20,000 nt of DNA, from IMG/VR virus record IMGVR_UViG_3300031132_000335, one strand, 5' to 3'. The position numbers and the translations under genes are program-made. The DNA is from an uncultured virus (IMG/VR IMGVR_UViG_3300031132_000335) (lineage: Duplodnaviria; Heunggongvirae; Uroviricota; Caudoviricetes). Under the pieces are notes generated by a model. That model saw only the letters and a program-made list of their open reading frames with translations. It searched no databases and was not told where the DNA came from. How positions within the stretch are numbered: position 1 is the first letter of the stretch; every line of letters begins with the position of its first letter. This document shows, one piece after another, positions 2,731 through 17,066 of this stretch.

Positions 2731-3723
2731 ATGACCAACATGCACATTGCACTCCGCGGCCCACGTAAAGATGAGTGGGTATCTTGTGACGCAAAGAAGC
2801 GTTGCCGAAACAGCCGGCTACATGTTACTCCTGAACAACTCCACGCTATTCAAGCATGGAAAGGCAGCAACACAGCAATCACTGAAAGCGATGTTCTCCA
2901 TTACACGAAAGAACTCAACTCTGGCGACCCTATTACCTTGATCGAAGCTGGACGAGCTCATCAGGAACGTGAGCGCCGGTTGCAGGAAATCCAGAAGCAG
3001 TTCCTCCCAGTTCAAAAAGTTCGTGAGAGTACCGCCCGTCAAGTTACAGCGGAGCAAGCTTCTGCTTGGGTGAACTCGCTCACTGAGGAGGAGAAGGAGG
3101 CTCTGACGGATTTCAGCCGGTGGGACTCAAACGAGACGAACCTCTACTTCTACAAAGACGATTTCCGTGAAGCGTTCGACAGTTATAACCTGCTTGCATA
3201 CCCCGGTGCATACACCTCAAAGTCTGAACCGGAGCAAATGAAGTTGATGAGAGCGTACCGTCAAAAACTTCTAGACCGTGTAGCTCATATGGATGCAGCT
3301 CTAGGTAAAGAGACCCCATTCTCCGATGGTGTCCTGTTGTACCGAGGAGATGATGTCCCGTACACAGAAAATGAGAGTAAAGACATGCTGGAAGTCATTC
3401 GTGCAGCGTATCCGATTGGTTCCACCTACTCCCGTAGTTCATTCATGTCCACTTCATCCAATCCAGTAGTTGCTGGAGAGTTCGCTCGGTCGTTTGTGTT
3501 TGAGATTCTCACTGACCGAGGCGGACCTATCCAGGATTTAGCTCATGTGCAACGAGAAGAGGAAGTCATCCTCCCTCGTAATGAAGAGTACGAAGTTGTA
3601 GCTGTGCACCCAAACGTAAAGTACCGCGACACTCAGTACAATTGGCGTGTGGAGACGATGGTGGAAAAAGACATCAAAGAGTACACAGTCGTGCAGTTGG
3701 TGTCCAAGCGACTCCTGCCTTGA
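2731..3723 (+). CDS. ADP-ribosyltransferase, R-S-E clade (VIP2/C2/Alt-like), with an N-terminal Cys/His module
   Basis: Motifs LLYRG, FMSTSSNP and REEEVILPRN (ExE), preceded by the typical 'LTEEEKEAL..F....S..TN.Y' helix. N-terminus H...G....W..C.A...C....H. Confidence 0.85.
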   Translation: MTNMHIALRGPRKDEWVSCDAKKRCRNSRLHVTPEQLHAIQAWKGSNTAITESDVLHYTKELNSGDPITLIEAGRAHQERERRLQEIQKQFLPVQKVRESTARQVTAEQASAWVNSLTEEEKEALTDFSRWDSNETNLYFYKDDFREAFDSYNLLAYPGAYTSKSEPEQMKLMRAYRQKLLDRVAHMDAALGKETPFSDGVLLYRGDDVPYTENESKDMLEVIRAAYPIGSTYSRSSFMSTSSNPVVAGEFARSFVFEILTDRGGPIQDLAHVQREEEVILPRNEEYEVVAVHPNVKYRDTQYNWRVETMVEKDIKEYTVVQLVSKRLLP

Positions 3724-4050: not shown

Positions 4051-4254
4051 ATGGTTATCGTCTACATCATTCTAGCGCTTTCCGTTCCTGCCATCGCTTA
4101 TTACGTCCACTTGGCTTCTATTGCAGCTTCTGAGAGCAAAGTGAAGGTTGCTGAATTGCAGACTCAGGCAGCTCGGGAGCAGGCAGCTGCTGACCTGGCG
4201 CGAGCAGAGGCTGATAAAATGAAGGTGGAAGAGATGCGCTTGCAGCGTCTCTGA
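4051..4254 (+). CDS. Small single-pass membrane protein with coiled-coil tail
   Basis: GAGGAG RBS; hydrophobic N-terminus, Ala/Glu/Lys-rich tail. Confidence 0.75.
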   Translation: MVIVYIILALSVPAIAYYVHLASIAASESKVKVAELQTQAAREQAAADLARAEADKMKVEEMRLQRL

Positions 4255-4268
4255 GATGAAGAGCGTAG

Positions 4269-4308
4269 GGCAGGTAAACTTTTGAACATGAAAGTTTGCC
4301 TGCCTTTT
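4269..4308 (+). terminator. Intrinsic terminator insulating cassette 1
   Basis: GGCAGGTAAACTTT / AAAGTTTGCCTGCC stem (one G-U) followed by TTTT. Confidence 0.75.
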
Positions 4309-4317
4309 CATTTGAGC

Positions 4318-4326
4318 TGATATACT
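4318..4326 (+). promoter_or_regulatory. Extended -10 promoter of cassette 1
   Basis: TGaTATACT, 6 nt before the conserved TGGC start of the leader; identical spacing in all three cassettes. Confidence 0.7.
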
Positions 4327-4332
4327 TTGTAA

Positions 4333-4470
4333 TGGCGGGTCAACATTCGCCTGTCTTAGATGCTGCTTCTCCTACGCAGGAATCGCATCGCTAAGAGCAA
4401 GGTCTTCCACTCAGATCGTGTTGATAAGTTCAACCTTCATGACAGAGTACACATGGTTGGGCGTAGGGCA
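4333..4470 (+). ncRNA. Candidate structured leader RNA, copy 1 (double pseudoknot)
   Basis: Shares blocks GTCTT-AGATGC, CTCCTACGC, AGAGCAAGGTC, AGATCGTGT, GTTCAAC, CATGA and GCGTAGG with copies 2 and 3. TCAACAT (4340-4346) pairs GTGTTGA (4418-4424); CCTACGC (4371-4377) pairs GCGTAGG (4461-4467). Confidence 0.75.
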
Positions 4471-4487
4471 ATCATGGCAGGAAAATC

Positions 4488-6557
4488 ATGACGAAAAATA
4501 CGAACAAGAAAAAGCGTGTCCGCAAGCAGATGGAACGCTCACAGACGAATTACCTTTCAGCAGCTCGGGTCTTACAGCAGAAAAGCCCTACGAAGCGGGT
4601 TCCCACTCCTTGGAGTCTCCTCAACAAGAGTCTACTTGGTGGTGGGCTAACAGTTGGTGTGCATGCTATCTCTATGCCAGAGGAACTGCATGGGAAGATG
4701 ACCCGTGAAGCTTTTGACCAAAGAGCAATAAATGTACTTTTCTTGGAAACGGGCTACGAATACCGGGACAAGGAAAGCTATCAGAACTTTACAGGGTCTT
4801 CACGCTATGTGCAGGCTCTCAAAGATAACCCTTCTGGTAAAGCCAAAAACATCACTACGCATTACGGCTTTGAGACAATTGATATTCCTCTGGATGAATG
4901 GAGCAAGAACATAGAGGCCGAACTTGTGAACATGGCTCCTCGTCTGCTCGTCATTAGCAGCCGAAGCTATGAAGGCATTAACCAGGACCATGGAGCTGTC
5001 ACCCAAGTTTACATTGAGCAGTTGAAGCGTATCTCTCACCGATTTCAAATTCCAGTTGTCGTTGTCTACGGCACTAATGCTGAAAAATATACGGTGGAAG
5101 ATATCTCTCAGGAATCACTAAATTCTTCTATCATCGGTATTCCTGATGAGAATGAGACGCAAGTTGTCGCAGCGTTTGAAGTCGTCTCGAATAACGAACC
5201 AGTAGTTGCTACCCCTTGGGATAGTTTGAATACACTATTGAAAGGCGGTTATCGCGCTGGGTTCCATACCTTGACTTTGACAGAAGAGCAGCGACTCGGA
5301 GCCGTACGGGCACTTCAAGACAACAAAGAAGTTCGCGTTCTACTTGTCTCAGACTGGAAAGACAACCAGTATTTATCCATGTCCCTGGCAACCAGAGGAG
5401 AACAAGAGCAGCTGTGGATTCATAAGCCCCAAAACCACAAGTACCCTGTACTAGACGAGTGGGTTGACAACCTTGTTGCTGACTTCAAAGTCTATGAACC
5501 AGACATACTGGTTGTGGACATGTTCAAAAACCTGTACGAACATTATGGGCGCAGCAACGGCACAATGATACAGGCGTACGCGGACAAGCTTGATTACATT
5601 GCAAAAAAGTTCAGTCTTCCTATCGTTGCCCTAAGAGTTGATGAATCTGAGCACCTCCATACTGACACTATAAGGTACCGCAGACTCACCTCAGCTGTAA
5701 CCGCTGAGGTTGACGAAGTGGACTCATCGCGTCTTTCAGAGTTTAGGTTTGATGTTCCCCGTCAACAGGACGCTTCCTCCCGAGTGACTTTGCCTTGGGA
5801 AAGCGTCAACCAGTTGTATCAAAAAGACGGAACAGCTGGGCTACAGCCTGGCTTGCATATTTGGGCCAGCTCTTACCACTTCAACCTCGAGGATATCGCG
5901 GCTATTGCAGCGTACGATGGGAATCAAGGTAGTCTCATGTTCACAGCACTGGGAGAATTCAACAACAAGACCTACAAAAACGAAATCTTCATGAAACGCG
6001 ACATTCCAGTTTTTCAGCTTGAAGACCATACCATTCGGGGAGCGTATAATCCTACTTTATTGCAACATCTTGACAAAGAGCAGCTTTTAGGATTTATCAG
6101 CAAAGAAAAGACACGAAAGTATCCAACGCAGTTATTAGTACTGAACCAAAGTCTGACTAACACTCCTGTCGCTGAAATTATTGAAAAAGGGGAGAATTTG
6201 GATATTGCATGGTCTGACGATAGCAAAGCTGGACGAGAAGCTACTCGGGTAGCCCGCAGAGTTTGGACGGAAGACTTATTCCATCAACTTCACAAGCTTG
6301 CGGTTGAACAGTCGTTCCCTATCCTTCTCCTTGAAGAAATTGCGGGAGTAGGTGAGACCTCCGTAGAATCAATCGTGGATGAGTCACTCGCAGCACTCCA
6401 GAAGCAGTTACACATTACAGATAGTGCGTTGGAGCAGGTGGCAACCTTTACCTATGTGTCCCCTCATAATACTCCTGACAAAGCTATTCGTTTCACTCAG
6501 GCCACTGGGAAGCAAGCAGGCGAGTCAGCTCTTGTTCCTTGGAACGAACTCTATTAG
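4488..6557 (+). CDS. Basic N-terminal peptide plus three tandem degenerate DnaB/RecA-like ATPase-fold domains (no Walker A)
   Basis: Three domain starts (TPWSLLNKSLLGGGLTVGVH, TPWDSLNTLLKGGYRAGFH, LPWESVNQLY..GLQPGLH) and three 'L..I/L....xP(V/I)hhh' motifs (LKRISHRFQIPVVVV, LDYIAKKFSLPIVAL, LHKLAVEQSFPILLL). No GKS/T. Confidence 0.75.
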   Translation: MTKNTNKKKRVRKQMERSQTNYLSAARVLQQKSPTKRVPTPWSLLNKSLLGGGLTVGVHAISMPEELHGKMTREAFDQRAINVLFLETGYEYRDKESYQNFTGSSRYVQALKDNPSGKAKNITTHYGFETIDIPLDEWSKNIEAELVNMAPRLLVISSRSYEGINQDHGAVTQVYIEQLKRISHRFQIPVVVVYGTNAEKYTVEDISQESLNSSIIGIPDENETQVVAAFEVVSNNEPVVATPWDSLNTLLKGGYRAGFHTLTLTEEQRLGAVRALQDNKEVRVLLVSDWKDNQYLSMSLATRGEQEQLWIHKPQNHKYPVLDEWVDNLVADFKVYEPDILVVDMFKNLYEHYGRSNGTMIQAYADKLDYIAKKFSLPIVALRVDESEHLHTDTIRYRRLTSAVTAEVDEVDSSRLSEFRFDVPRQQDASSRVTLPWESVNQLYQKDGTAGLQPGLHIWASSYHFNLEDIAAIAAYDGNQGSLMFTALGEFNNKTYKNEIFMKRDIPVFQLEDHTIRGAYNPTLLQHLDKEQLLGFISKEKTRKYPTQLLVLNQSLTNTPVAEIIEKGENLDIAWSDDSKAGREATRVARRVWTEDLFHQLHKLAVEQSFPILLLEEIAGVGETSVESIVDESLAALQKQLHITDSALEQVATFTYVSPHNTPDKAIRFTQATGKQAGESALVPWNELY

Positions 6558-6579
6558 TAGCAGATGTCGGTAAAGGACG

Positions 6580-6614
6580 GGGAGTTCCAGAGCGGTTAGC
6601 TGGAACTCCCTTTT
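6580..6614 (+). terminator. Intrinsic terminator between cassettes 1 and 2
   Basis: GGGAGTTCCAG / CTGGAACTCCC 11-bp stem followed by TTTT. Confidence 0.8.
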
Positions 6615-6635
6615 ATGCGTTCAAAATCAATAGTC

Positions 6636-6644
6636 TGCTATCCT
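6636..6644 (+). promoter_or_regulatory. Extended -10 promoter of cassette 2
   Basis: TGcTATCCT, 6 nt before TGGC (6651). Confidence 0.65.
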
Positions 6645-6650
6645 GTTTTC

Positions 6651-6777
6651 TGGCAGCCAACACCTGCCCGTCTTAGATGCACTCCTCCTACGCAGGGAGC
6701 ATTGGTTAGAGCAAGGTCCCGTATAGATCGTGTTGGTTGTTCAACTTCCATGACCTATGACAGTTGAGCGTAGGTCA
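6651..6777 (+). ncRNA. Candidate structured leader RNA, copy 2 (double pseudoknot)
   Basis: GGCAG/CTGCC hairpin with loop CCAACAC (6657-6663) pairing GTGTTGG (6730-6736); loop CCTACGC (6687-6693) pairing GCGTAGG (6768-6774); TCAACT/AGTTGA stem. Confidence 0.8.
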
Positions 6778-6796
6778 ATTGTCGTTTGGATGAATC

Positions 6797-7672
6797 ATGA
6801 CGAAGAACACCCGCACCAAAGAAACCGTCCGCGCCCGTATGGCTATCACTGGGGAGAACTACCTCACTGCCTATCGCGCTCTGTTTGAGACAAATCATTA
6901 CCTTACTCCGTGGGATGACATCAACCAATTCCTTGATGGTGGGTTGCGACCTGGGCTGCATGTAGTCGCATCTGCTAGTCTGGAACCAGCAGCAGGAGCG
7001 ATCATGGGCTTAGTGACTCAGAACCACTGGAAAACATTCATGCATAGTGCAGCTTCTGTATGGGGAGAGCTGGGTCCTCGCTGGGAGGGAATGGCTCAAG
7101 TCTATGGCGGAGAAAATCGCTTAGATGACATCCGCAATGAAACAGGGAGTACCTCAACGCGACCAAAATACCTCACATTCAGAGGAATTGGTGGAAGACA
7201 CAAAGGCAGTAGCAGTAATTACTTTGATTGGCAGAACTCTATTCAGGACTTCCTCATTGGTATGCGTGAAAACTGTCTCGAGTTTCAATCAGAAGTTTTA
7301 GTGCTAGACTATTACCAAATCCTTACCAAAGGTCATACAAAAGACGATTACCAAGAACTTGCTGAGGGATTACAAAAACTTTCCCGTGAACTCAATATTC
7401 CTGTCATCCTGCAAACCCAATTGAGCACAAACGCCAATAGTCAGCCTTCTGATTGGTCTTCCTTGCGCGGTGATTATGGGATGCTCAATGAATATGCAGA
7501 CACCATCATGACATTCGCATCCTTCTACACCCAAGCATACAATAGCCGTGGACCAAAAGACGGAGTATTTGGCGAAGAAGACCTTGTGCGATGGGTAAAA
7601 ATTAGCGTCGACAAAACCGCCCATGGAATGACTGGGGAGACACTCCTACAAAAAGAGAAATTCCTCGCGTAA
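6797..7672 (+). CDS. Basic N-terminal peptide plus DnaB C-terminal-like domain, probably catalytically inactive
   Basis: TPWDDINQFLDGGLRPGLHVV, LVLDYYQIL, LQKLSRELNIPVILQTQLS, ADTIM. Walker A position reads ASASLEPAAGA and the KNRxG arginine finger reads KTAHG. Confidence 0.8.
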   Translation: MTKNTRTKETVRARMAITGENYLTAYRALFETNHYLTPWDDINQFLDGGLRPGLHVVASASLEPAAGAIMGLVTQNHWKTFMHSAASVWGELGPRWEGMAQVYGGENRLDDIRNETGSTSTRPKYLTFRGIGGRHKGSSSNYFDWQNSIQDFLIGMRENCLEFQSEVLVLDYYQILTKGHTKDDYQELAEGLQKLSRELNIPVILQTQLSTNANSQPSDWSSLRGDYGMLNEYADTIMTFASFYTQAYNSRGPKDGVFGEEDLVRWVKISVDKTAHGMTGETLLQKEKFLA

Positions 7673-7702
7673 CAGCATTTTCTGCGCCGTTTAGGAGGAC
7701 CG

Positions 7703-7711
7703 TGCTATCAT
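7703..7711 (+). promoter_or_regulatory. Extended -10 promoter of cassette 3
   Basis: TGcTATCAT, 6 nt before TGGC (7718). Confidence 0.7.
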
Positions 7712-7717
7712 AAAGGC

Positions 7718-7849
7718 TGGCAGCAGACATCTGCCCGTCTTTAGATGCAGGTCCTCCTACGCGGGAAGCATTGACAAGAGCAAGGTCTCAAATAGATCGT
7801 GTCAGTTGTTCAACTCACCATGAAACCCATGACGGTTGAGCGTAGGTCA
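7718..7849 (+). ncRNA. Candidate structured leader RNA, copy 3 (double pseudoknot)
   Basis: GGCAG/CTGCC hairpin with loop CAGACAT (7724-7730) pairing GTGTCAG (7799-7805, one A-A mismatch); loop CCTACGC (7756-7762) pairing GCGTAGG (7840-7846). Confidence 0.8.
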
Positions 7850-7868
7850 ATTGTCGTTTGGATGAATC

Positions 7869-8696
7869 ATGACGAAGAATACTCACACAAAAATCGCAGT
7901 CCGCGCCCGTATGGCTGTTACTGGCGAGAATTATCTCACCGCCTACCGCGCTCTGTTTGAGCAGACGCTATACACGTCTCCTTGGCCTGAGATGAACCGA
8001 ATCCTTGGCGGCGGCTATCGTACTGGGCTGCATGTTATTGGTGCGCCAAAAAAGACAGGGAAGAGTCTCATCATCCGAGCTTTGGCTGCAAATTCTACAA
8101 AACCTGTATTGGTTGCTGGAACAGAGGTTTCAGAGAAAGAGTTCTGGGACACTACTGCTATTGACCTTTACCGATTTGGTGGAGAAGACCTCATGAAAGC
8201 CTCAGGCGGCCAGTATGTTGACGAGCTGAGAAAGAAGATTTCCTTTCGTAGCGGTTTCGTCCACCATGTGATAGGGAAAAATATATTTGGCCTTCTTGAC
8301 GAAATTGAAAACCAGTATGAAGTCACGCCTTTCGGTGCTGTATTCTTTGATTCTCTTCAAGCGGTGACTGGCAGTAGGGATGAACTTACCCAATTCACAC
8401 GGGCGCTCAAACTGTTTGCAAATAAATATGACATCCCTGTTTTTCTCACCTCGGAAATGCTAACCTCACAGGTAAATGGCATGATGAAAGTTTCCGGCCT
8501 TGCATCTAGTGGGACTGTTGAGCAAGATGCTGACACTATCACGCTTCTCTCCCGACAGTACACCTTGAAGAGCGAACATACAGAACCAACCTTCACGCAA
8601 GCTGACATGGTTGAGTGGCTGCGAATGGATGTTGTGAAGAACCGCTACGGGCAGACTGACTCTATCCAGGTGAAGAAGACTGAGATTTTCTCCTGA
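7869..8696 (+). CDS. Basic N-terminal peptide plus DnaB-like (SF4) helicase C-terminal ATPase domain with intact motifs
   Basis: Walker A APKKTGKS, catalytic Glu region GTEVS, Walker B VFFDSLQ, IPVFLTSEM, SSGTVEQDADTITLL, arginine finger VVKNRYG. No DnaB N-terminal or primase domain. Confidence 0.85.
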   Translation: MTKNTHTKIAVRARMAVTGENYLTAYRALFEQTLYTSPWPEMNRILGGGYRTGLHVIGAPKKTGKSLIIRALAANSTKPVLVAGTEVSEKEFWDTTAIDLYRFGGEDLMKASGGQYVDELRKKISFRSGFVHHVIGKNIFGLLDEIENQYEVTPFGAVFFDSLQAVTGSRDELTQFTRALKLFANKYDIPVFLTSEMLTSQVNGMMKVSGLASSGTVEQDADTITLLSRQYTLKSEHTEPTFTQADMVEWLRMDVVKNRYGQTDSIQVKKTEIFS

Positions 8697-8774
8697 ACCT
8701 GCTTGCGAAGCTGGTGAGGATGGTGTACGTTCACTGTTGTACCCGTAAAAACTCAGTGAAAGGTCTGACCACTC

Positions 8775-10301
8775 ATGGTCATCTTCTACATCATCCTCAC
8801 CGTTGTCGTCGCTGCTGCCGCAGTGGCACTGGTGAAGGTGTTCAACGCCATGCACATCACGGCATTCGCAGCTACTGCGCTGGTTGCCATGCTGCTGCCG
8901 CTTCCGACGTATGCCATCACCACGGCTGTCGCTCGTGAGGACCAGCAGACCTACCACGAGTACTGGAATGGGTTTGAGTCCAGTGCGGACCAGTCAGTCA
9001 TCAACTGCACCCGTGATGGTTCCTGCCAGCACACGTTCTCGTGCGACCCGTACCAGGTGACGGAAATGGAGACGTACACTGTGTACGAGACCCAGACCTA
9101 CACTGACAGTGAAGGTCACATGAAGACGCGCAGCGTGCCGAAGCAGAAGCAGCGTCCTGTCACGAAGACGAAGTACCACTCCTGCCCGTACTCCAAGCAG
9201 GAAACCACCTACACTGTCAACACGACTCTCGGCGGATACACGGTTGAGTCGCACCTCATGACGGGAGAGCCGTGGCGTTGGGGCCACAGCATTCCTGGTG
9301 GTCAGGTCACAAAGGCTCCTGCTGTGTGGACCGCTGTGCAAAAGCGCATCGCTGACGGTAACCCTGGCGGTGTCACGAAGGTCAGCAACTACAAGAACTA
9401 CATCCTTGCTTCCGACAACCTCTTCAAGCGTTACAGCGACAAGGTTGACCAGTTGCAGAAGAAGGGCCTGCTGCCTGCGCCGACTGTTGGCGTGTCGGGT
9501 ATGTACGATGCGCAGAAGGTCTCGTTCCTCGGAAACATGCACGGCGCTCCCGTGAAGGCTCTGGCAAAGGACATGCCTCGCCTGAACGGGGCAGTTGGTA
9601 CTCAGCTTCGCGGCGATGTTCGTGTGGTGTTCGTTGATGCGGAGAAGATGACGGACAACCCTGAGGACTACGCGAACGCTGTCATGGCGTACTGGCAGTC
9701 CAAGCAGCTTGGTCGGGATGCTCTTGCGAAGAACACGGTGGCGGTCCTGGTCGGAGTGAAGGGGTACGAGAAGCCTGCTCAGTCAGAGGTCTCCCCGACT
9801 TCGGTTTCCACTCCGACTACCACTGCCACCGCTGCTGCAACTCCTGCTGAGGTTGCACCTGTCATCAAGCCTGGAACTCCTGTGGTAGCATGGGCGAAGG
9901 CGTTCACGGGGATGCCTGTCGGGAATGAAGCCCTGTTGCAGCAGTTCAACTCGGAGCTTCCTGGTACGGTCATTGACAAGAACTTCCTTGGCTCCCCGAA
10001 GTTCAACCCGTCCAACAGCACCATCACGCACACGAACGGTGTGATTGAAGGTATGCTGTACGGTGAGAACAAGTTCCAGCGGGTCAGTATGACCGCAAAG
10101 GACGCAGGTGACGTAGGTTCTGGATTCGCATACCTTGGCCAGAACTGGCAGCCTGACACTGGAACGCTTGTCACGTTCTACATCATCGCAAGCATCCTCT
10201 TTACAGGAGCGCTTATCGGTGGTAGTGTCCTGACTATGAACCTCGCTGCCTCCCGCAGCATTGACCCCATCAAGATGTTCCTCGGAAAGGGAAAGAATTG
10301 A
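8775..10301 (+). CDS. Membrane protein with a large extracytoplasmic domain (two N-terminal TM, one C-terminal TM)
   Basis: GAAAGG RBS; Cys-containing segment C.RDGSC.H...CDPY...YHSCPY; Thr/Ala/Pro linker; strongly C/G-ending codons. Confidence 0.85.
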   Translation: MVIFYIILTVVVAAAAVALVKVFNAMHITAFAATALVAMLLPLPTYAITTAVAREDQQTYHEYWNGFESSADQSVINCTRDGSCQHTFSCDPYQVTEMETYTVYETQTYTDSEGHMKTRSVPKQKQRPVTKTKYHSCPYSKQETTYTVNTTLGGYTVESHLMTGEPWRWGHSIPGGQVTKAPAVWTAVQKRIADGNPGGVTKVSNYKNYILASDNLFKRYSDKVDQLQKKGLLPAPTVGVSGMYDAQKVSFLGNMHGAPVKALAKDMPRLNGAVGTQLRGDVRVVFVDAEKMTDNPEDYANAVMAYWQSKQLGRDALAKNTVAVLVGVKGYEKPAQSEVSPTSVSTPTTTATAAATPAEVAPVIKPGTPVVAWAKAFTGMPVGNEALLQQFNSELPGTVIDKNFLGSPKFNPSNSTITHTNGVIEGMLYGENKFQRVSMTAKDAGDVGSGFAYLGQNWQPDTGTLVTFYIIASILFTGALIGGSVLTMNLAASRSIDPIKMFLGKGKN

Positions 10302-10954
10302 ACTTCATCACCAGCATGTCCAAGCGGACGAAGACCATCGTCATCGTCGCTGTCCTCCTGATTGCGGCTCTCATCGTGGGCCTGTCGTTTTACGGCAAGT
10401 ACAACTCTCTGAACACTGAGGGTGTCCGTCAGGAGCAGGCGCTGAACGCGCAGTACCTGGATAACAAGAACGAGCTGTCCGCATACACGAACACGGTCCT
10501 GGAATCCCTCGGGGTTGCGGACCGTCAGAGTGACAAGGTGAAGGAAATTCTTACTGAGGCTGTCCAGGGTCGCTATGGGAAGAGCCTGGGTGAGGGTAGC
10601 CAGCTCTTCACTGTCATCAGCGAGGCTTACCCTGACCTGACCGCGACTTCCCAGTCCTACGCGAAGGTGCAGGATGCGGTTGCTTCGGGCCGTGCTGCGT
10701 TCAAGAACAAGCAGACTGTTCTCCTGAGCAAGGTGGAAGAGTACAACAAGTGGCGTAAGACTGGCCTGGTCCAGCGGAACATGATTTCCTCTCTCGGGTT
10801 CCCCTCCGATGACCTTGTGGTCAAGCAGGACGGTCGCACCTTCCGCGGTGAGGATGCCCTGGACAAGATGAGTGACATCATTACTTCGTCTCAGGCTGAG
10901 CAGTCTTATGACACGGGAACCAGTGACCCGCTCATCGGCGGAAGCGGTAAGTAA
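10298..10954 (+). CDS. N-terminally anchored helical protein, LemA-like family seen in large phages
   Basis: Overlaps the upstream stop; one TM followed by 'EQALNAQY..N...LS.Y...AV.GRY...EAYP...Y.KVQ.A...GR..F...Q' (recognition from memory). Confidence 0.7.
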   Translation: MNFITSMSKRTKTIVIVAVLLIAALIVGLSFYGKYNSLNTEGVRQEQALNAQYLDNKNELSAYTNTVLESLGVADRQSDKVKEILTEAVQGRYGKSLGEGSQLFTVISEAYPDLTATSQSYAKVQDAVASGRAAFKNKQTVLLSKVEEYNKWRKTGLVQRNMISSLGFPSDDLVVKQDGRTFRGEDALDKMSDIITSSQAEQSYDTGTSDPLIGGSGK

Positions 10955-10961
10955 GTCTACT

Positions 10962-11007
10962 CAATGAAGGAAGGCCAGGAATTTTTATTCCTGGCCTTCC
11001 TTCATTG
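10962..11007. terminator. 21-bp perfect hairpin, probable terminator
   Basis: CAATGAAGGAAGGCCAGGAAT-TTTT-ATTCCTGGCCTTCCTTCATTG. Confidence 0.75.
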
Positions 11008-15612: not shown

Positions 15613-15864
15613 TTACTTCTTCTGGACGTTACCCCAATCGCAAGACATGGAACCAGACTGGTATCCTTTGTCATACACAAGGCAATGAATGACAGAACCG
15701 TCTTTGAGCTTCACGTATTCTTCATTGTAGCCGCCTACCTCATCCTTAGGGCTAAGAGTAGCAGGAGCATCAGGGTTTTCCGCGTAGGAAACGGAACTGC
15801 ATCCTGTAAGACTGACAACAGCAGCTCCGACAAGAACGGCGGAGGCTAAAAGCTTCTTCATCAT
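15613..15864 (-). CDS. Small lipoprotein
   Basis: MMKKLLASAVLVGAAVVSLTGC signal peptide with LTGC lipobox; AGGAG RBS. Confidence 0.8.
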   Translation of the reverse strand: MMKKLLASAVLVGAAVVSLTGCSSVSYAENPDAPATLSPKDEVGGYNEEYVKLKDGSVIHCLVYDKGYQSGSMSCDWGNVQKK

Positions 15865-15934
15865 GAGTGTTTCTCTCCTAAGTAGATGACGTTTTCATAT
15901 CAGTCTATCAGAGAAATCCCCTTCAAACAAGTAG

Positions 15935-16141
15935 CTACGGATAATACATGCTACTGGACTTGCTTGGGTTAGATGGATGATCTATGTAGTGCAGGGACAT
16001 GCCTTTCCCACAAAGAGGGCAAAGATGTTCTTTGTGTGTATCAATAGGGTCTTCTGAGTGACCTGCTCCTAATTGAGCTGGTCCAGCTGCACGAATAAGA
16101 GCGGTATTCCAGTTATTGTACCATTGCGTTAATTTAGCCAT
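15935..16141 (-). CDS. Small CxxC protein
   Basis: GAAGGAG RBS before ATG 16141; AGPAQLG and CPLCG..M..H motifs, resembling small proteins of Microbacteriaceae (from memory). Confidence 0.7.
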   Translation of the reverse strand: MAKLTQWYNNWNTALIRAAGPAQLGAGHSEDPIDTHKEHLCPLCGKGMSLHYIDHPSNPSKSSSMYYP

Positions 16142-16957
16142 TGGTGGTTCTCCTTCTCTTAACATCAAGCTCTTTACGATGTGACAGAAGTTATCCGTAT
16201 TCTCTTGTGAATTCAGTTTGCAAAATGTAAAGAATTGCAGATAACGTTAGAGATATTGTCTGGAAAAGACGAAAAATGAAAACAAAAAAAATTATTCGGC
16301 TGCTTAAGTTAACAATGATAACAAAGCTTTTAGAGAGTACGTAACCTTTACGAGAAGTAAGGTTGGGAGAATACCCCTACAAATTTTTCAATTGATGTTA
16401 TCTAATGGTTAACAGGAGTGTTCGCTACCTGGTTGCGTTTCTGACAACGTAGGACAGGCTTCTCGACGTAACCAAAACCCCCTGCTGTCAAAAATATAGA
16501 TTTGAGCAGCAAGGGAAGACTTCGGTTTGAAAACGAGTTATGTAATAAATCAGTAAGGAGTCTTGTCAGAATAAGATGACCAGGACGGCAATTACAGGAT
16601 GATATAGGGTTTTTCTGCCCTTGATTGATTGAATGTTTTCGCTATGCCACGGTCTGCCTTTATCACAGCTTCATCCTGCTCATGGACCCCTCTTAGCGTA
16701 TGCTTCTCACTACAACCGGTGGGCGAGCCGGTGGACTTCCGCCGCTGTATCTCTCCAACCAGAGTGTCAATTCTGGAAGTCGTAGCACTGAATGTGCTTG
16801 CGGTGGCAACTATATGATCGCTCCTGAGATAATCACTCTCAGACTTCGTTATGCTCTAAGTATACTAACAGGCATTTTTCATTCACCTGCTGTTTTGGAG
16901 GGTATCGGCTAAGATTTTCTCGCATCCATTCCATTCAAGGCATATGCATTAAGACAT

Positions 16958-16997
16958 TGAAACCAAATGAAAGTAACTGAAAACAAATGAAAGCAAA
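16958..16997 (+). repeat. Four tandem 10-bp imperfect direct repeats
   Basis: TGAAACCAAA TGAAAGTAAC TGAAAACAAA TGAAAGCAAA; another TGAAAACAAA at 16277-16286. Confidence 0.7.
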
Positions 16998-17066
16998 TCA
17001 CTTTCGTTTATCTTCAAAGCTAATGTTCTTGCCGTTTGATACGACTACTTCATGAAAGGATTCATC

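Follow-up and report, generated by a model that had tools for sequence, protein, structure and literature searches.

A 20,000-nucleotide (nt) stretch of DNA from an uncultured virus of the Caudoviricetes (IMG/VR record IMGVR_UViG_3300031132_000335), hereafter the window, carries three consecutive genes that begin with the same structured leader RNA and the same short N-terminal peptide, here named the tag. Leader and tag together make up a portable module, of which the window holds a divergent, low-GC version. The family exists beyond the window, the structure of its RNA covaries, protein-level selection acts on its peptide, and RNA and peptide are strictly linked. The structured RNA family is new to Rfam 15. 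Among the genomes sampled, it occurs in about one in ten of the class Actinomycetes and in 5 of 151 from the phylum of an Acidobacteriota metagenome-assembled genome; plasmids of Rhizobium and Streptomyces carry it as well. Unusually, this RNA is tied to a short protein tag instead of a pathway. Both RNA and tag are apparently undescribed: full-text literature searches, with subscription journals and later releases outside their scope, gave no description of either.

The three cassettes follow each other head to tail on the + strand, each composed of a −10 box, a leader, an open reading frame (ORF) opening with the tag, and a body of the DnaB_C/RecA fold. The extended −10 boxes are TGATATACT at 4318-4326, TGCTATCCT at 6636-6644 and TGCTATCAT at 7703-7711, all on the + strand. 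Each is separated by 6 nt from a TGGC, at 4333 (the presumed transcript start of cassette 1, give or take), 6651 and 7718. The original prediction had reported this three-fold tandem architecture, including the exact 6-nt spacing, and every feature it described was found in its place. From TGGC to ATG, the leaders (all +) measure 155 nt (4333-4487), 146 nt (6651-6796) and 151 nt (7718-7868); the predicted conserved non-coding element is thus real, at 146-155 nt rather than the 130-140 nt given for it. The start codon of all three ORFs is spanned by AATCATGACGAA, and their products P1, P2 and P3 share the opening peptide MTKNT..K..VR..M.....NYL.A.R.L.

Conservation among the cassettes is concentrated at this 5′ end. 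A 19-base gapped leader motif, AGAGCAAGGTC-N5-10-AGATCGTG, occurs three times in the window, versus 0.00 expected from 200 shuffles. DNA identity among the three copies is 70.5-85.4% in the leaders and 60.8-81.4% in the first 32 codons, with 50.0-54.7% in the remainder of the ORFs and 47.4-51.7% upstream of the −10 boxes. The non-coding element is therefore better kept than the protein body, as the original prediction had held. Within the first 32 codons, the genes of P2 and P3 differ by eight synonymous and five non-synonymous codons; with such synonymous divergence, the common 5′ end is not a recent conversion tract.

The tag is a family of its own. High-GC loci (L009-L015) match over the first 30 residues only, and there the tag heads other proteins. 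A tag profile, A7 (K..VR.RM..TGE.Y..A.R..L, residues 1-35), whose training set includes the window's own sequences, fits P2 and P3 in full and P1 in part (MERSQTNY). Of 301 sampled genomes of the class Actinomycetes, that of genome G001, 30 give a match, which invariably begins at query position 1; G016 and G025, both among these 30, are unpublished and serve for tallies only. Tagged proteins also occur in Acidobacteriota and on plasmids of Rhizobium and Streptomyces. There are up to five tagged genes in one genome (G002) and four in another (G082), and mostly a single copy elsewhere. In a representative library of 1.84 billion proteins, A7 finds 2,791 at E ≤ 0.001, a count inflated by proteins in which WRN..TGENYLY units are repeated. 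The best 150 of these 2,791 comprise 131 in which the tag begins at residues 1-8, 13 in which the match is split into several stretches, and 6 in which it lies further in. Three of the 13 multi-stretch matches were read (P0020, P0024 and P0135); they are repeat proteins with 'DILWRN..TGENYLY' units and were set aside as unrelated look-alikes.

The bodies fused to the tag are KH_2, HEAT_2, Clp_N, DUF4287 with AHSA1, BtrH_N with DUF4872, DUF2087, CN_hydrolase, or none. With the DnaB_C body added by the window, at least nine different domain architectures carry it. A structure search of the ESM Atlas found tag-shaped N-termini on DUF1835, TPR and WD40 proteins, which we treat as leads only. No model or entry for the tag was found in Pfam (E ≤ 1), NCBIfam or the sequences of the PDB. 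Its invariant residues are written with several synonymous codons (entropy 1.20 at the third position, versus 0.83 and 0.76 at the first and second); selection therefore acts on the peptide. As read from the sequences, the tag is rich in lysine and arginine. In the AlphaFold model of P3, with a predicted local distance difference test score of 81.2, it folds as a helix (residues 5-18), a TGE turn and a second helix (22-30), followed by a RecA-like core.

Two side observations concern the tag. A complete 43-residue ORF at L010:8001-8129 consists of practically the tag alone, and many short tag-only proteins (41-100 residues) are present among the A7 library matches; some may be trans-acting versions, or fragments from contig ends. 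Transfer RNA (tRNA) genes lie 0.3-3 kb from several tagged genes (L011:335-407, L014:2788-2861, L018:561-644 and L018:1838-1921), and such sites may be integration hot spots.

The 150-165 nt upstream of the tag in the high-GC loci are similar to the window leaders in length and element order. Twenty-four actinobacterial leaders align well across their 5′ 90 nt, and their consensus has four helices: H1; helix P2 (typically ACCUCC/GGAGGC), which surrounds helix P3 with its 7-nt loop; and, after an unpaired GCAAAG, H3. (Helices P2 and P3 are always named as such here, the proteins simply P2 and P3.) Consensus pairing is kept in 91.8% of cells, versus 77.5% after column shuffling (0 of 500 shuffles reach the observed value) and 37-55% in slid controls. 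Double changes are seen in 14 of the 22 consensus pairs.

Two pseudoknots complete the fold. In 42 of 43 leaders the 7-nt loop of helix P3 finds, 29-51 nt downstream in the loop of a later hairpin, a sequence that pairs with it throughout (Watson-Crick pairs and no more than one G-U). This second pseudoknot, PK2, is maintained through 11 loop variants; when loops were set against the downstream parts of other leaders, 89 of 1146 combinations paired. Variants include CUCACGC/GCGUGAG, CCCACGC/GCGUGGG, CCCCAGC/GCUGGGG, CCCCGGC/GCCGGGG, CCCGCGC/GCGCGGG and CCUACGC/GCGUAGG, and among leaders from the phylum of G002, found in a second search described below, CCUGCGC/GCGCAGG is combined with a CUCUC/GAGAG helix P2. 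The first pseudoknot, PK1, joins the H1 loop to the strand directly 3′ of H3. It reaches at least 6 base pairs (bp) in 31 of 40 leaders versus 197 of 736 controls, with variants such as UGUUUCG/CGAAACA and GCAUCCG/CGGAUGC. Compensatory changes, seen across phyla in both pseudoknots and in the four helices, demonstrate selection on RNA pairing, and the double pseudoknot proposed from the window has the backing of covariation. Of 38 leaders, 26 have a TANNNT box immediately before the 5′ end of the RNA, versus 27 of 3110 control windows (0.9%); the fold therefore begins at the transcript 5′ end, as it does in the window.

Known families do not account for this RNA. At gathering score, Rfam 15 returns nothing in the window and only tRNAs in 27 related loci; at E ≤ 10 it gives chance-level rows only in window 4200-8000, and a single mir-150 row (E 6.7) in a strong member of the family. 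No named system of such layout had been recognised at the outset, and nothing in Rfam 15, Pfam, NCBIfam or the PDB explains the element.

RNA and tag are found together from whichever side the search begins. We built two covariance models: R1, from the 24 actinobacterial leaders, and R2, broader, from 39 sequences. R1 recognises leaders at loci outside its training set: L050 (57.8 bits), L048 (51.9), L049 (46.6), L015 (37.7, for the pair L015/L017), L047 (30.3), L052 (24.2), L019 (22.0) and L046 (19.5). It also detects a leader before tagged genes of Nonomuraea gerenzanensis (67.3 bits), of a Streptomyces sp. plasmid (51.1) and of the Rhizobium ruizarguesonis plasmid pRlX4 (51.1). Starting from the peptide, R1 finds a leader at E < 0.5 in 26 of 28 published tag loci, of which 20 had been training rows. 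The other two are L016, with a weak R1 match (its twin L014 scores 18.2 bits), and L051, with none. Starting from the RNA, 17 matches in 14 of 151 genomes all lie 70-170 nt upstream of a tag match; two of them are in unpublished genomes, and in the published ones 15 of 15 are linked. A second RNA-first search, in the phylum of G002 (Terriglobales, Acidobacteriota), gave 8 matches in 5 of 151 genomes, each followed by the tag. Altogether, the peptide follows directly on 25 of 25 RNA-first matches. Across 18 loci, no neighbouring gene was seen to be conserved, and the module therefore looks self-contained.

The tagged genes of the Streptomyces plasmid and of pRlX4 are both annotated as carbon-nitrogen hydrolases. 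The occurrence of the same tagged hydrolase on plasmids of the two genera suggests transfer between phyla. On the conjugative alphaproteobacterial plasmid, the module heads the hydrolase gene at L070 (record 382396-383388), and beside it, on the opposite strand, is a gene annotated as belonging to the rRNA adenine N-6-methyltransferase family.

In the window, the elements of this fold can be assigned in all three leaders (all coordinates on the + strand). In leader 1, H1 is formed by 4334-4337/4348-4351 and helix P2 by 4359-4363/4385-4389, around the helix P3 hairpin with its loop CCUACGC at 4371-4377. There follow GAGCAAGG at 4395-4402, H3 (4401-4404/4414-4417) and the 3′ strand of PK1 (4418-4425), which pairs with the H1 loop at 4339-4346. 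Hairpin H5 (4452-4459/4469-4476) exposes the loop GCGUAGG at 4461-4467, whose pairing with the loop of helix P3 constitutes PK2, and a Shine-Dalgarno AGGA is placed at 4479-4482. Leader 2 has H1 at 6652-6656/6664-6668 with the loop CCAACAC (6657-6663), helix P2 at 6676-6680/6699-6703, the helix P3 loop CCUACGC at 6687-6693, H3 at 6715-6718/6726-6729, the PK1 3′ strand GUGUUGG at 6730-6736, and H5 at 6757-6767/6775-6785 with the loop GCGUAGG (6768-6774). In leader 3, the corresponding elements are H1 7719-7723/7731-7735, helix P2 7744-7748/7768-7772, the helix P3 loop CCUACGC 7756-7762, H3 7784-7787/7795-7798, the PK1 3′ strand 7799-7805, weakest of the three, and H5 7829-7839/7847-7857 with the loop GCGUAGG 7840-7846. 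One RNA-library contig of 257 nt spans 4350-4606 with 0 differences; it is a weak hint of transcription, because such libraries can contain DNA. Gaps in the cover of RNA run X19 were given no weight.

These leaders very probably belong to the actinobacterial family, judging by their architecture. R1 aligns full-length at 4330, 6648 and 7715, each time 3 nt before the TGGC. Under the actinobacterial consensus, 58 of 66 cells (87.9%) of the window leaders pair, versus 39-56% when slid, a figure that leans towards structure, as the alignment was fitted to the model. The test by PK2 is independent of R1, because R1 does not encode it: the pair CCUACGC/GCGUAGG is perfect in leaders 1, 2 and 3, at offsets of 37, 32 and 35 nt, within the 29-51 nt of the family. 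PK1 measures 8 and 9 bp in leaders 1 and 2, respectively, and only 5 bp, at a shifted place, in leader 3; its sequence in the window, CCAACAC/GUGUUGG, is unrelated to that of the family and occupies the same topological place. The order of elements (H1, helix P2, helix P3, GCAAGG, H3, H5) is that of the family, starting at the −10 box and ending at the tag ORF. Bridging forms with a TGENY-type tag are found at L009, L011, L013 and L014.

Several results weigh against this membership. R1 scores the window leaders at 5.5-6.0 bits (E 6.8-8.2 when the window is searched, 1.2-1.5 for 3.6 kb), and an unrelated chance site at 10641 does better, with 7.6 bits. At E ≤ 10, R2 does not report any of the three, and nhmmer started from them has no match in L009-L013. 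Moreover, being paralogues, they amount to a single witness. As these scores are insignificant, membership rests on architecture, position and peptide. The window leaders could instead be a non-homologous, lineage-specific 5′ untranslated region that resembles the family by chance, with only the peptide in common. The insignificant model scores and missing nhmmer cross-match are what this would predict, and GC content (48% in the window, 56-82% in the family) points the same way. Such a coincidence would have to extend, however, to a length of 146-155 nt (about 150-165 nt in the family), the same start at a −10 box, the same order of elements, a model-placed helix P3 loop with a perfect 7-nt complement at the family offset, a PK1 of different sequence in the same topological place, pairing under a foreign consensus, and the intermediates with their TGENY-type tag; we consider it quite improbable.

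As for function, we propose that each cassette would be its own transcription unit, with its −10 box, a leader of about 150 nt from the transcript 5′ end, and its ORF. Leader and first ~30 codons make up one conserved portable module at the head of many unrelated genes. The RNA folds into a 5′ domain (H1, helix P2 enclosing helix P3, and H3) and a 3′ hairpin, H5, tied together by PK1 and PK2, and ends a few nucleotides short of the Shine-Dalgarno sequence. The basic two-helix tag, as an N-terminal domain or still as a nascent chain, would bind this fold on its own mRNA and hinder or trap the ribosome at the adjoining start site. The outcome would be autogenous, dose-limiting control of any protein that bears the tag.

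That the tag binds the leader of its own mRNA, next to the ribosome-binding site, and so regulates itself is a tentative reading, to which we give slightly less than an even chance. Strict linkage, the basic two-helix nature of the tag and a fold adjoining the ribosome-binding site support it indirectly, and several points speak against it. The Shine-Dalgarno sequence is not clearly sequestered in predicted folds, and the mechanism of repression is therefore a guess. Common ancestry alone could hold RNA and peptide together, if both serve a third factor. The training leaders of R1 were found through the peptide, and the RNA-first search could miss divergent relatives that lack it. The tag occurs without a detectable leader at L010 (the 43-residue ORF), L012 and L051. 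Finally, the related locus L008 (L008:205-322; window counterpart 4353-4402) has a deletion of about 50 nt in leader 1, between two GTCTT repeats; helices P2 and P3 and GAGCAAGG are lost, and the P1-like gene behind them (P0078) is intact. Somewhat more tentative is the extended reading, where promoter, leader and tag would be a plug-and-play autoregulation cassette, possibly acting co-translationally in cis, grafted onto at least ten unrelated families in at least three phyla, with the tag as a new class of RNA-binding mini-domain.

The original prediction had taken RNA and basic peptide for a cognate pair. The part of this idea that stands is co-occurrence irrespective of the fused domain, on which it had asked to be checked: it is seen in the searches from both ends and over the whole range of architectures. 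The part that falls is any role of the RNA as scaffold, guide or inhibitor specific to an ATPase, because most family members have no ATPase; the same RNA heads KH, HEAT, Clp_N, SRPBCC, hydrolase and further bodies.

The foremost alternative to self-binding is that RNA and peptide are two layers of one regulon. The RNA would sense a small molecule, an ion, temperature, a small RNA or a trans-acting protein, and the peptide would be an independent tag (a degron, a localisation signal or a partner helix); the same pathway would read both, and they would not touch. The RNA does look like a riboswitch, being compact, covarying, pseudoknotted, at the mRNA 5′ end and by the ribosome-binding site, and the loci with peptide and no RNA, like the leader-deleted variant before an intact gene, agree with this. 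Known riboswitch classes, however, follow one pathway and not a peptide motif, while the bodies here are unrelated; all 25 RNA matches come with the peptide, and no conserved neighbour offers itself as the common factor. We regard this explanation as unlikely, though worth keeping in mind.

Alternatively, the leader or a processed piece of it might remain bound to the tag as the cofactor of a ribonucleoprotein, in which it would scaffold, localise or assemble tagged proteins, for instance the three DnaB_C-like paralogues. Strict linkage of RNA and tag agrees with this, as do the genomes with several tagged genes (G002 and G082) and the three adjoining tagged paralogues of the window, one of them with a P-loop. 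Against it, the RNA is always in cis at a fixed distance before the start codon, as is typical of translational control, the window shows no separate terminator or processing signal between fold and ORF, and most module-bearing genomes have a single copy. The ribonucleoprotein is distinctly unlikely. Highly improbable is a mere recombination handle devoid of RNA function, kept by gene conversion or as homology for duplicating, deleting or swapping bodies: the variable cassettes of related contigs (below) and the grafting of the tag onto many bodies would suit it, but not the compensatory changes across phyla, the synonymous divergence of the tag, nor the genomes whose single copy has nothing to recombine with.

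The proposed self-regulation has its nearest precedent in the autogenous leaders of ribosomal-protein genes, among them the pseudoknots of S15/rpsO and of L20, the latter upstream of rpmI-rplT. Common to both are a 5′ leader that contains a pseudoknot and immediately precedes the ribosome-binding site, a product proposed as binder, and dose-limiting feedback. Here, however, the partner is a 30-residue tag on at least nine architectures and not one dedicated RNA-binding protein, the leader mimics no known rRNA site among those testable, and binding is only proposed. With riboswitches and orphan cis-regulatory leaders, the module shares a conserved, covarying, pseudoknotted leader that extends from the transcript 5′ end to the ribosome-binding site. 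It differs from them in that the downstream genes have no common pathway and only the tag in common, and in having no Rfam 15 family. The bodies (KH_2, HEAT, Clp_N, AHSA1, BtrH_N, DUF2087, CN_hydrolase and DnaB_C) do not fall into the single pathway expected of a riboswitch.

Type III toxin-antitoxin systems of the ToxIN kind likewise combine a protein with an RNA that forms pseudoknots and is encoded immediately before it. Their antitoxins consist of short repeats in tandem, which the toxin, an endoribonuclease, cuts. In contrast, each gene here has one leader of ~150 nt, the products are DnaB_C-like, and there is no ToxN-like protein; by inspection, without a tandem-repeat finder, no short tandem units were seen in the window leaders. 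The comparison with these systems, made in the original prediction, has no structural basis here. SecM, ErmCL and TnaC are encoded by upstream ORFs of their own; they stall the ribosome and remodel the downstream RNA. Such nascent-peptide sensors resemble the module in coupling a conserved short peptide to an mRNA structure that controls translation; here, however, the main product itself begins with the peptide, and the conserved RNA is located 5′ of the start codon.

If the tag binds its leader, the module would be an autoregulatory device independent of the fused body, and a compact part for expression control. Tag peptide and 150-nt RNA are a candidate new RNA-protein recognition pair. The module is also relevant to the movement of regulatory 5′ ends from gene to gene, and thousands of actinobacterial proteins labelled 'hypothetical' gain a new annotation of their N-termini.

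The proteins of the window are three paralogues of unequal preservation. P1 (689 residues, 4488-6557, +) consists of the tag and three tandem, degenerate DnaB_C-like domain starts. Its first 32 codons, MTKNTNKKKRVRKQMERSQTNYLSAARVLQQK (4488-4583, +), are the most divergent of the three tags. P2 (291 residues, 6797-7672, +) has a DnaB_C-like body with ASASLEPAAGAIMG at the Walker A position, and P3 (275 residues, 7869-8696, +) a DnaB_C/SF4 RecA-fold body with the Walker A sequence GAPKKTGKS. P2 and P3, 30% identical to each other, match Pfam DnaB_C (PF03796) with E 1.3e-9 and 1.5e-16, and both match PHROG 19/243, 'DnaB-like replicative helicase'. P1 has zero Pfam matches; its degenerate copies of the domain start lie at residues 1-96, 237-286 and 436-462 (domain starts at about 41, 243 and 436). 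By eye, in the alignment, the Walker A motif (GxxxxGK[ST]) is present only in P3, and missing in P2 and in all three domains of P1. Foldseek aligns the P3 model with DnaB, Twinkle and T7 gp4 at TM (template modelling) scores of 0.64-0.70, the best being DnaB 4esv (E 8.5e-14). The domain matches of P2 and P3 and the fold match of P3 bear out the assignment to the SF4/DnaB ATPase family made from the motifs. No DnaB N-terminal domain is found in P1-P3 by Pfam, and NCBIfam DnaB models match with their C-terminal parts only, far under cut-off (44 versus 385 bits).

The closest annotated relatives of these bodies are stand-alone DnaB_C proteins of actinobacteriophages ('DnaB-like dsDNA helicase' or 'DnaB-like replicative helicase'), in genes of Arthrobacter, Gordonia, Microbacterium and Curtobacterium phages with 26-29% identity. 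They resemble P2 and P3 in the DnaB_C match and P3 in fold; the window differs by its tag, by a Walker A motif only in P3 and by the triple degenerate tandem of P1. The three SF4/DnaB_C-like paralogues may act together, and a mixed ring or an assembly like that of RAD51 paralogues is conceivable. In total, the locus encodes five RecA-like domains, one with a P-loop and four degenerate, and the C-terminus of P1, LVPWNELY, is the beginning of a further repeat. A defence system was considered and rejected: PADLOC gives only a weak row for P1 (RmrA, E 0.001, 16.3 bits, 0 stretches).

Close relatives of the cassettes come from metagenomes, and the runs that contain the window stretch are of phyllosphere, leaf-litter and plant origin. 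Among metagenome-derived proteins, 16 of 964 candidates are homologues of P3 at E ≤ 0.001; their first ~32 residues are almost invariant, even where the body is down to 37-39% identity. Metagenome loci L005-L008 have the same cassettes, varying in order and number; contigs L006 and L008 show other arrangements, and P0078 is a 482-residue, two-domain protein similar to P1. On a 13-kb contig of a related strain (run X13), position 6663 is joined to 7731, with 11 letters that fit either side. As this joint falls inside leaders 2 and 3, that strain is without the entire P2 cassette. Judging by this junction, recombination between leaders changes the number of cassettes.

Searches for relatives in other collections were negative within their scope. 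Neither megablast of 4290-8700 nor blastn of leader 1 matched phage records, and tblastn of one tag had no match in 50,697 of them. The leader pattern gave four loci in viral contigs, all of them chance matches in coding DNA, and protein scans there found no relative. In genome contigs, a 26-base leader pattern had 0 matches and a protein scan found two tag-only loci. With nhmmer, the three window leaders recover only the near-identical L005-L008.

Other readings of the window leaders were discarded. An upstream ORF is not supported, since the leader ORFs at 4360-4491 and 6615-6767 are not in the same frame across copies. A diversity-generating retroelement, an integron attC site or an iteron does not agree with repeats at gene 5′ ends that have no short unit, and neither a reverse transcriptase nor an integrase is nearby. 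A ribozyme like that of hepatitis delta virus is unsuitable: the order of helices is unlike its nested double pseudoknot, and Rfam finds none.

Putative terminators frame the first cassette. On its 5′ side, a terminator-like hairpin at 4267-4306 (+), with an 18-pair stem followed by the T-tract TTCATTTGAG, closes the upstream unit. A likely terminator 3′ of P1, at 6580-6614 (+), was read by eye as a hairpin GGGAGTTCCAG/CTGGAACTCCC followed by TTTT; the terminator scan does not list it because its loop is 9 nt long. Just 5′ of the cassettes, at 2731-3723, an ORF of 330 residues has matches to ADP-ribosyltransferase exoenzyme domains (PF03496, E 6.2e-15; PF01129, E 5.5e-8). Beyond them, 8775-10954 holds a 508-residue membrane protein (PHROG 2087) and then a 218-residue LemA-like protein (PHROG 1383, which carries the annotation 'virion structural protein'). 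Over 9001-11000, GC content is 55-58%, versus about 48% on either side, and a low-GC stretch at 15850-17050 (41% over 16001-17000) contains short ORFs only.

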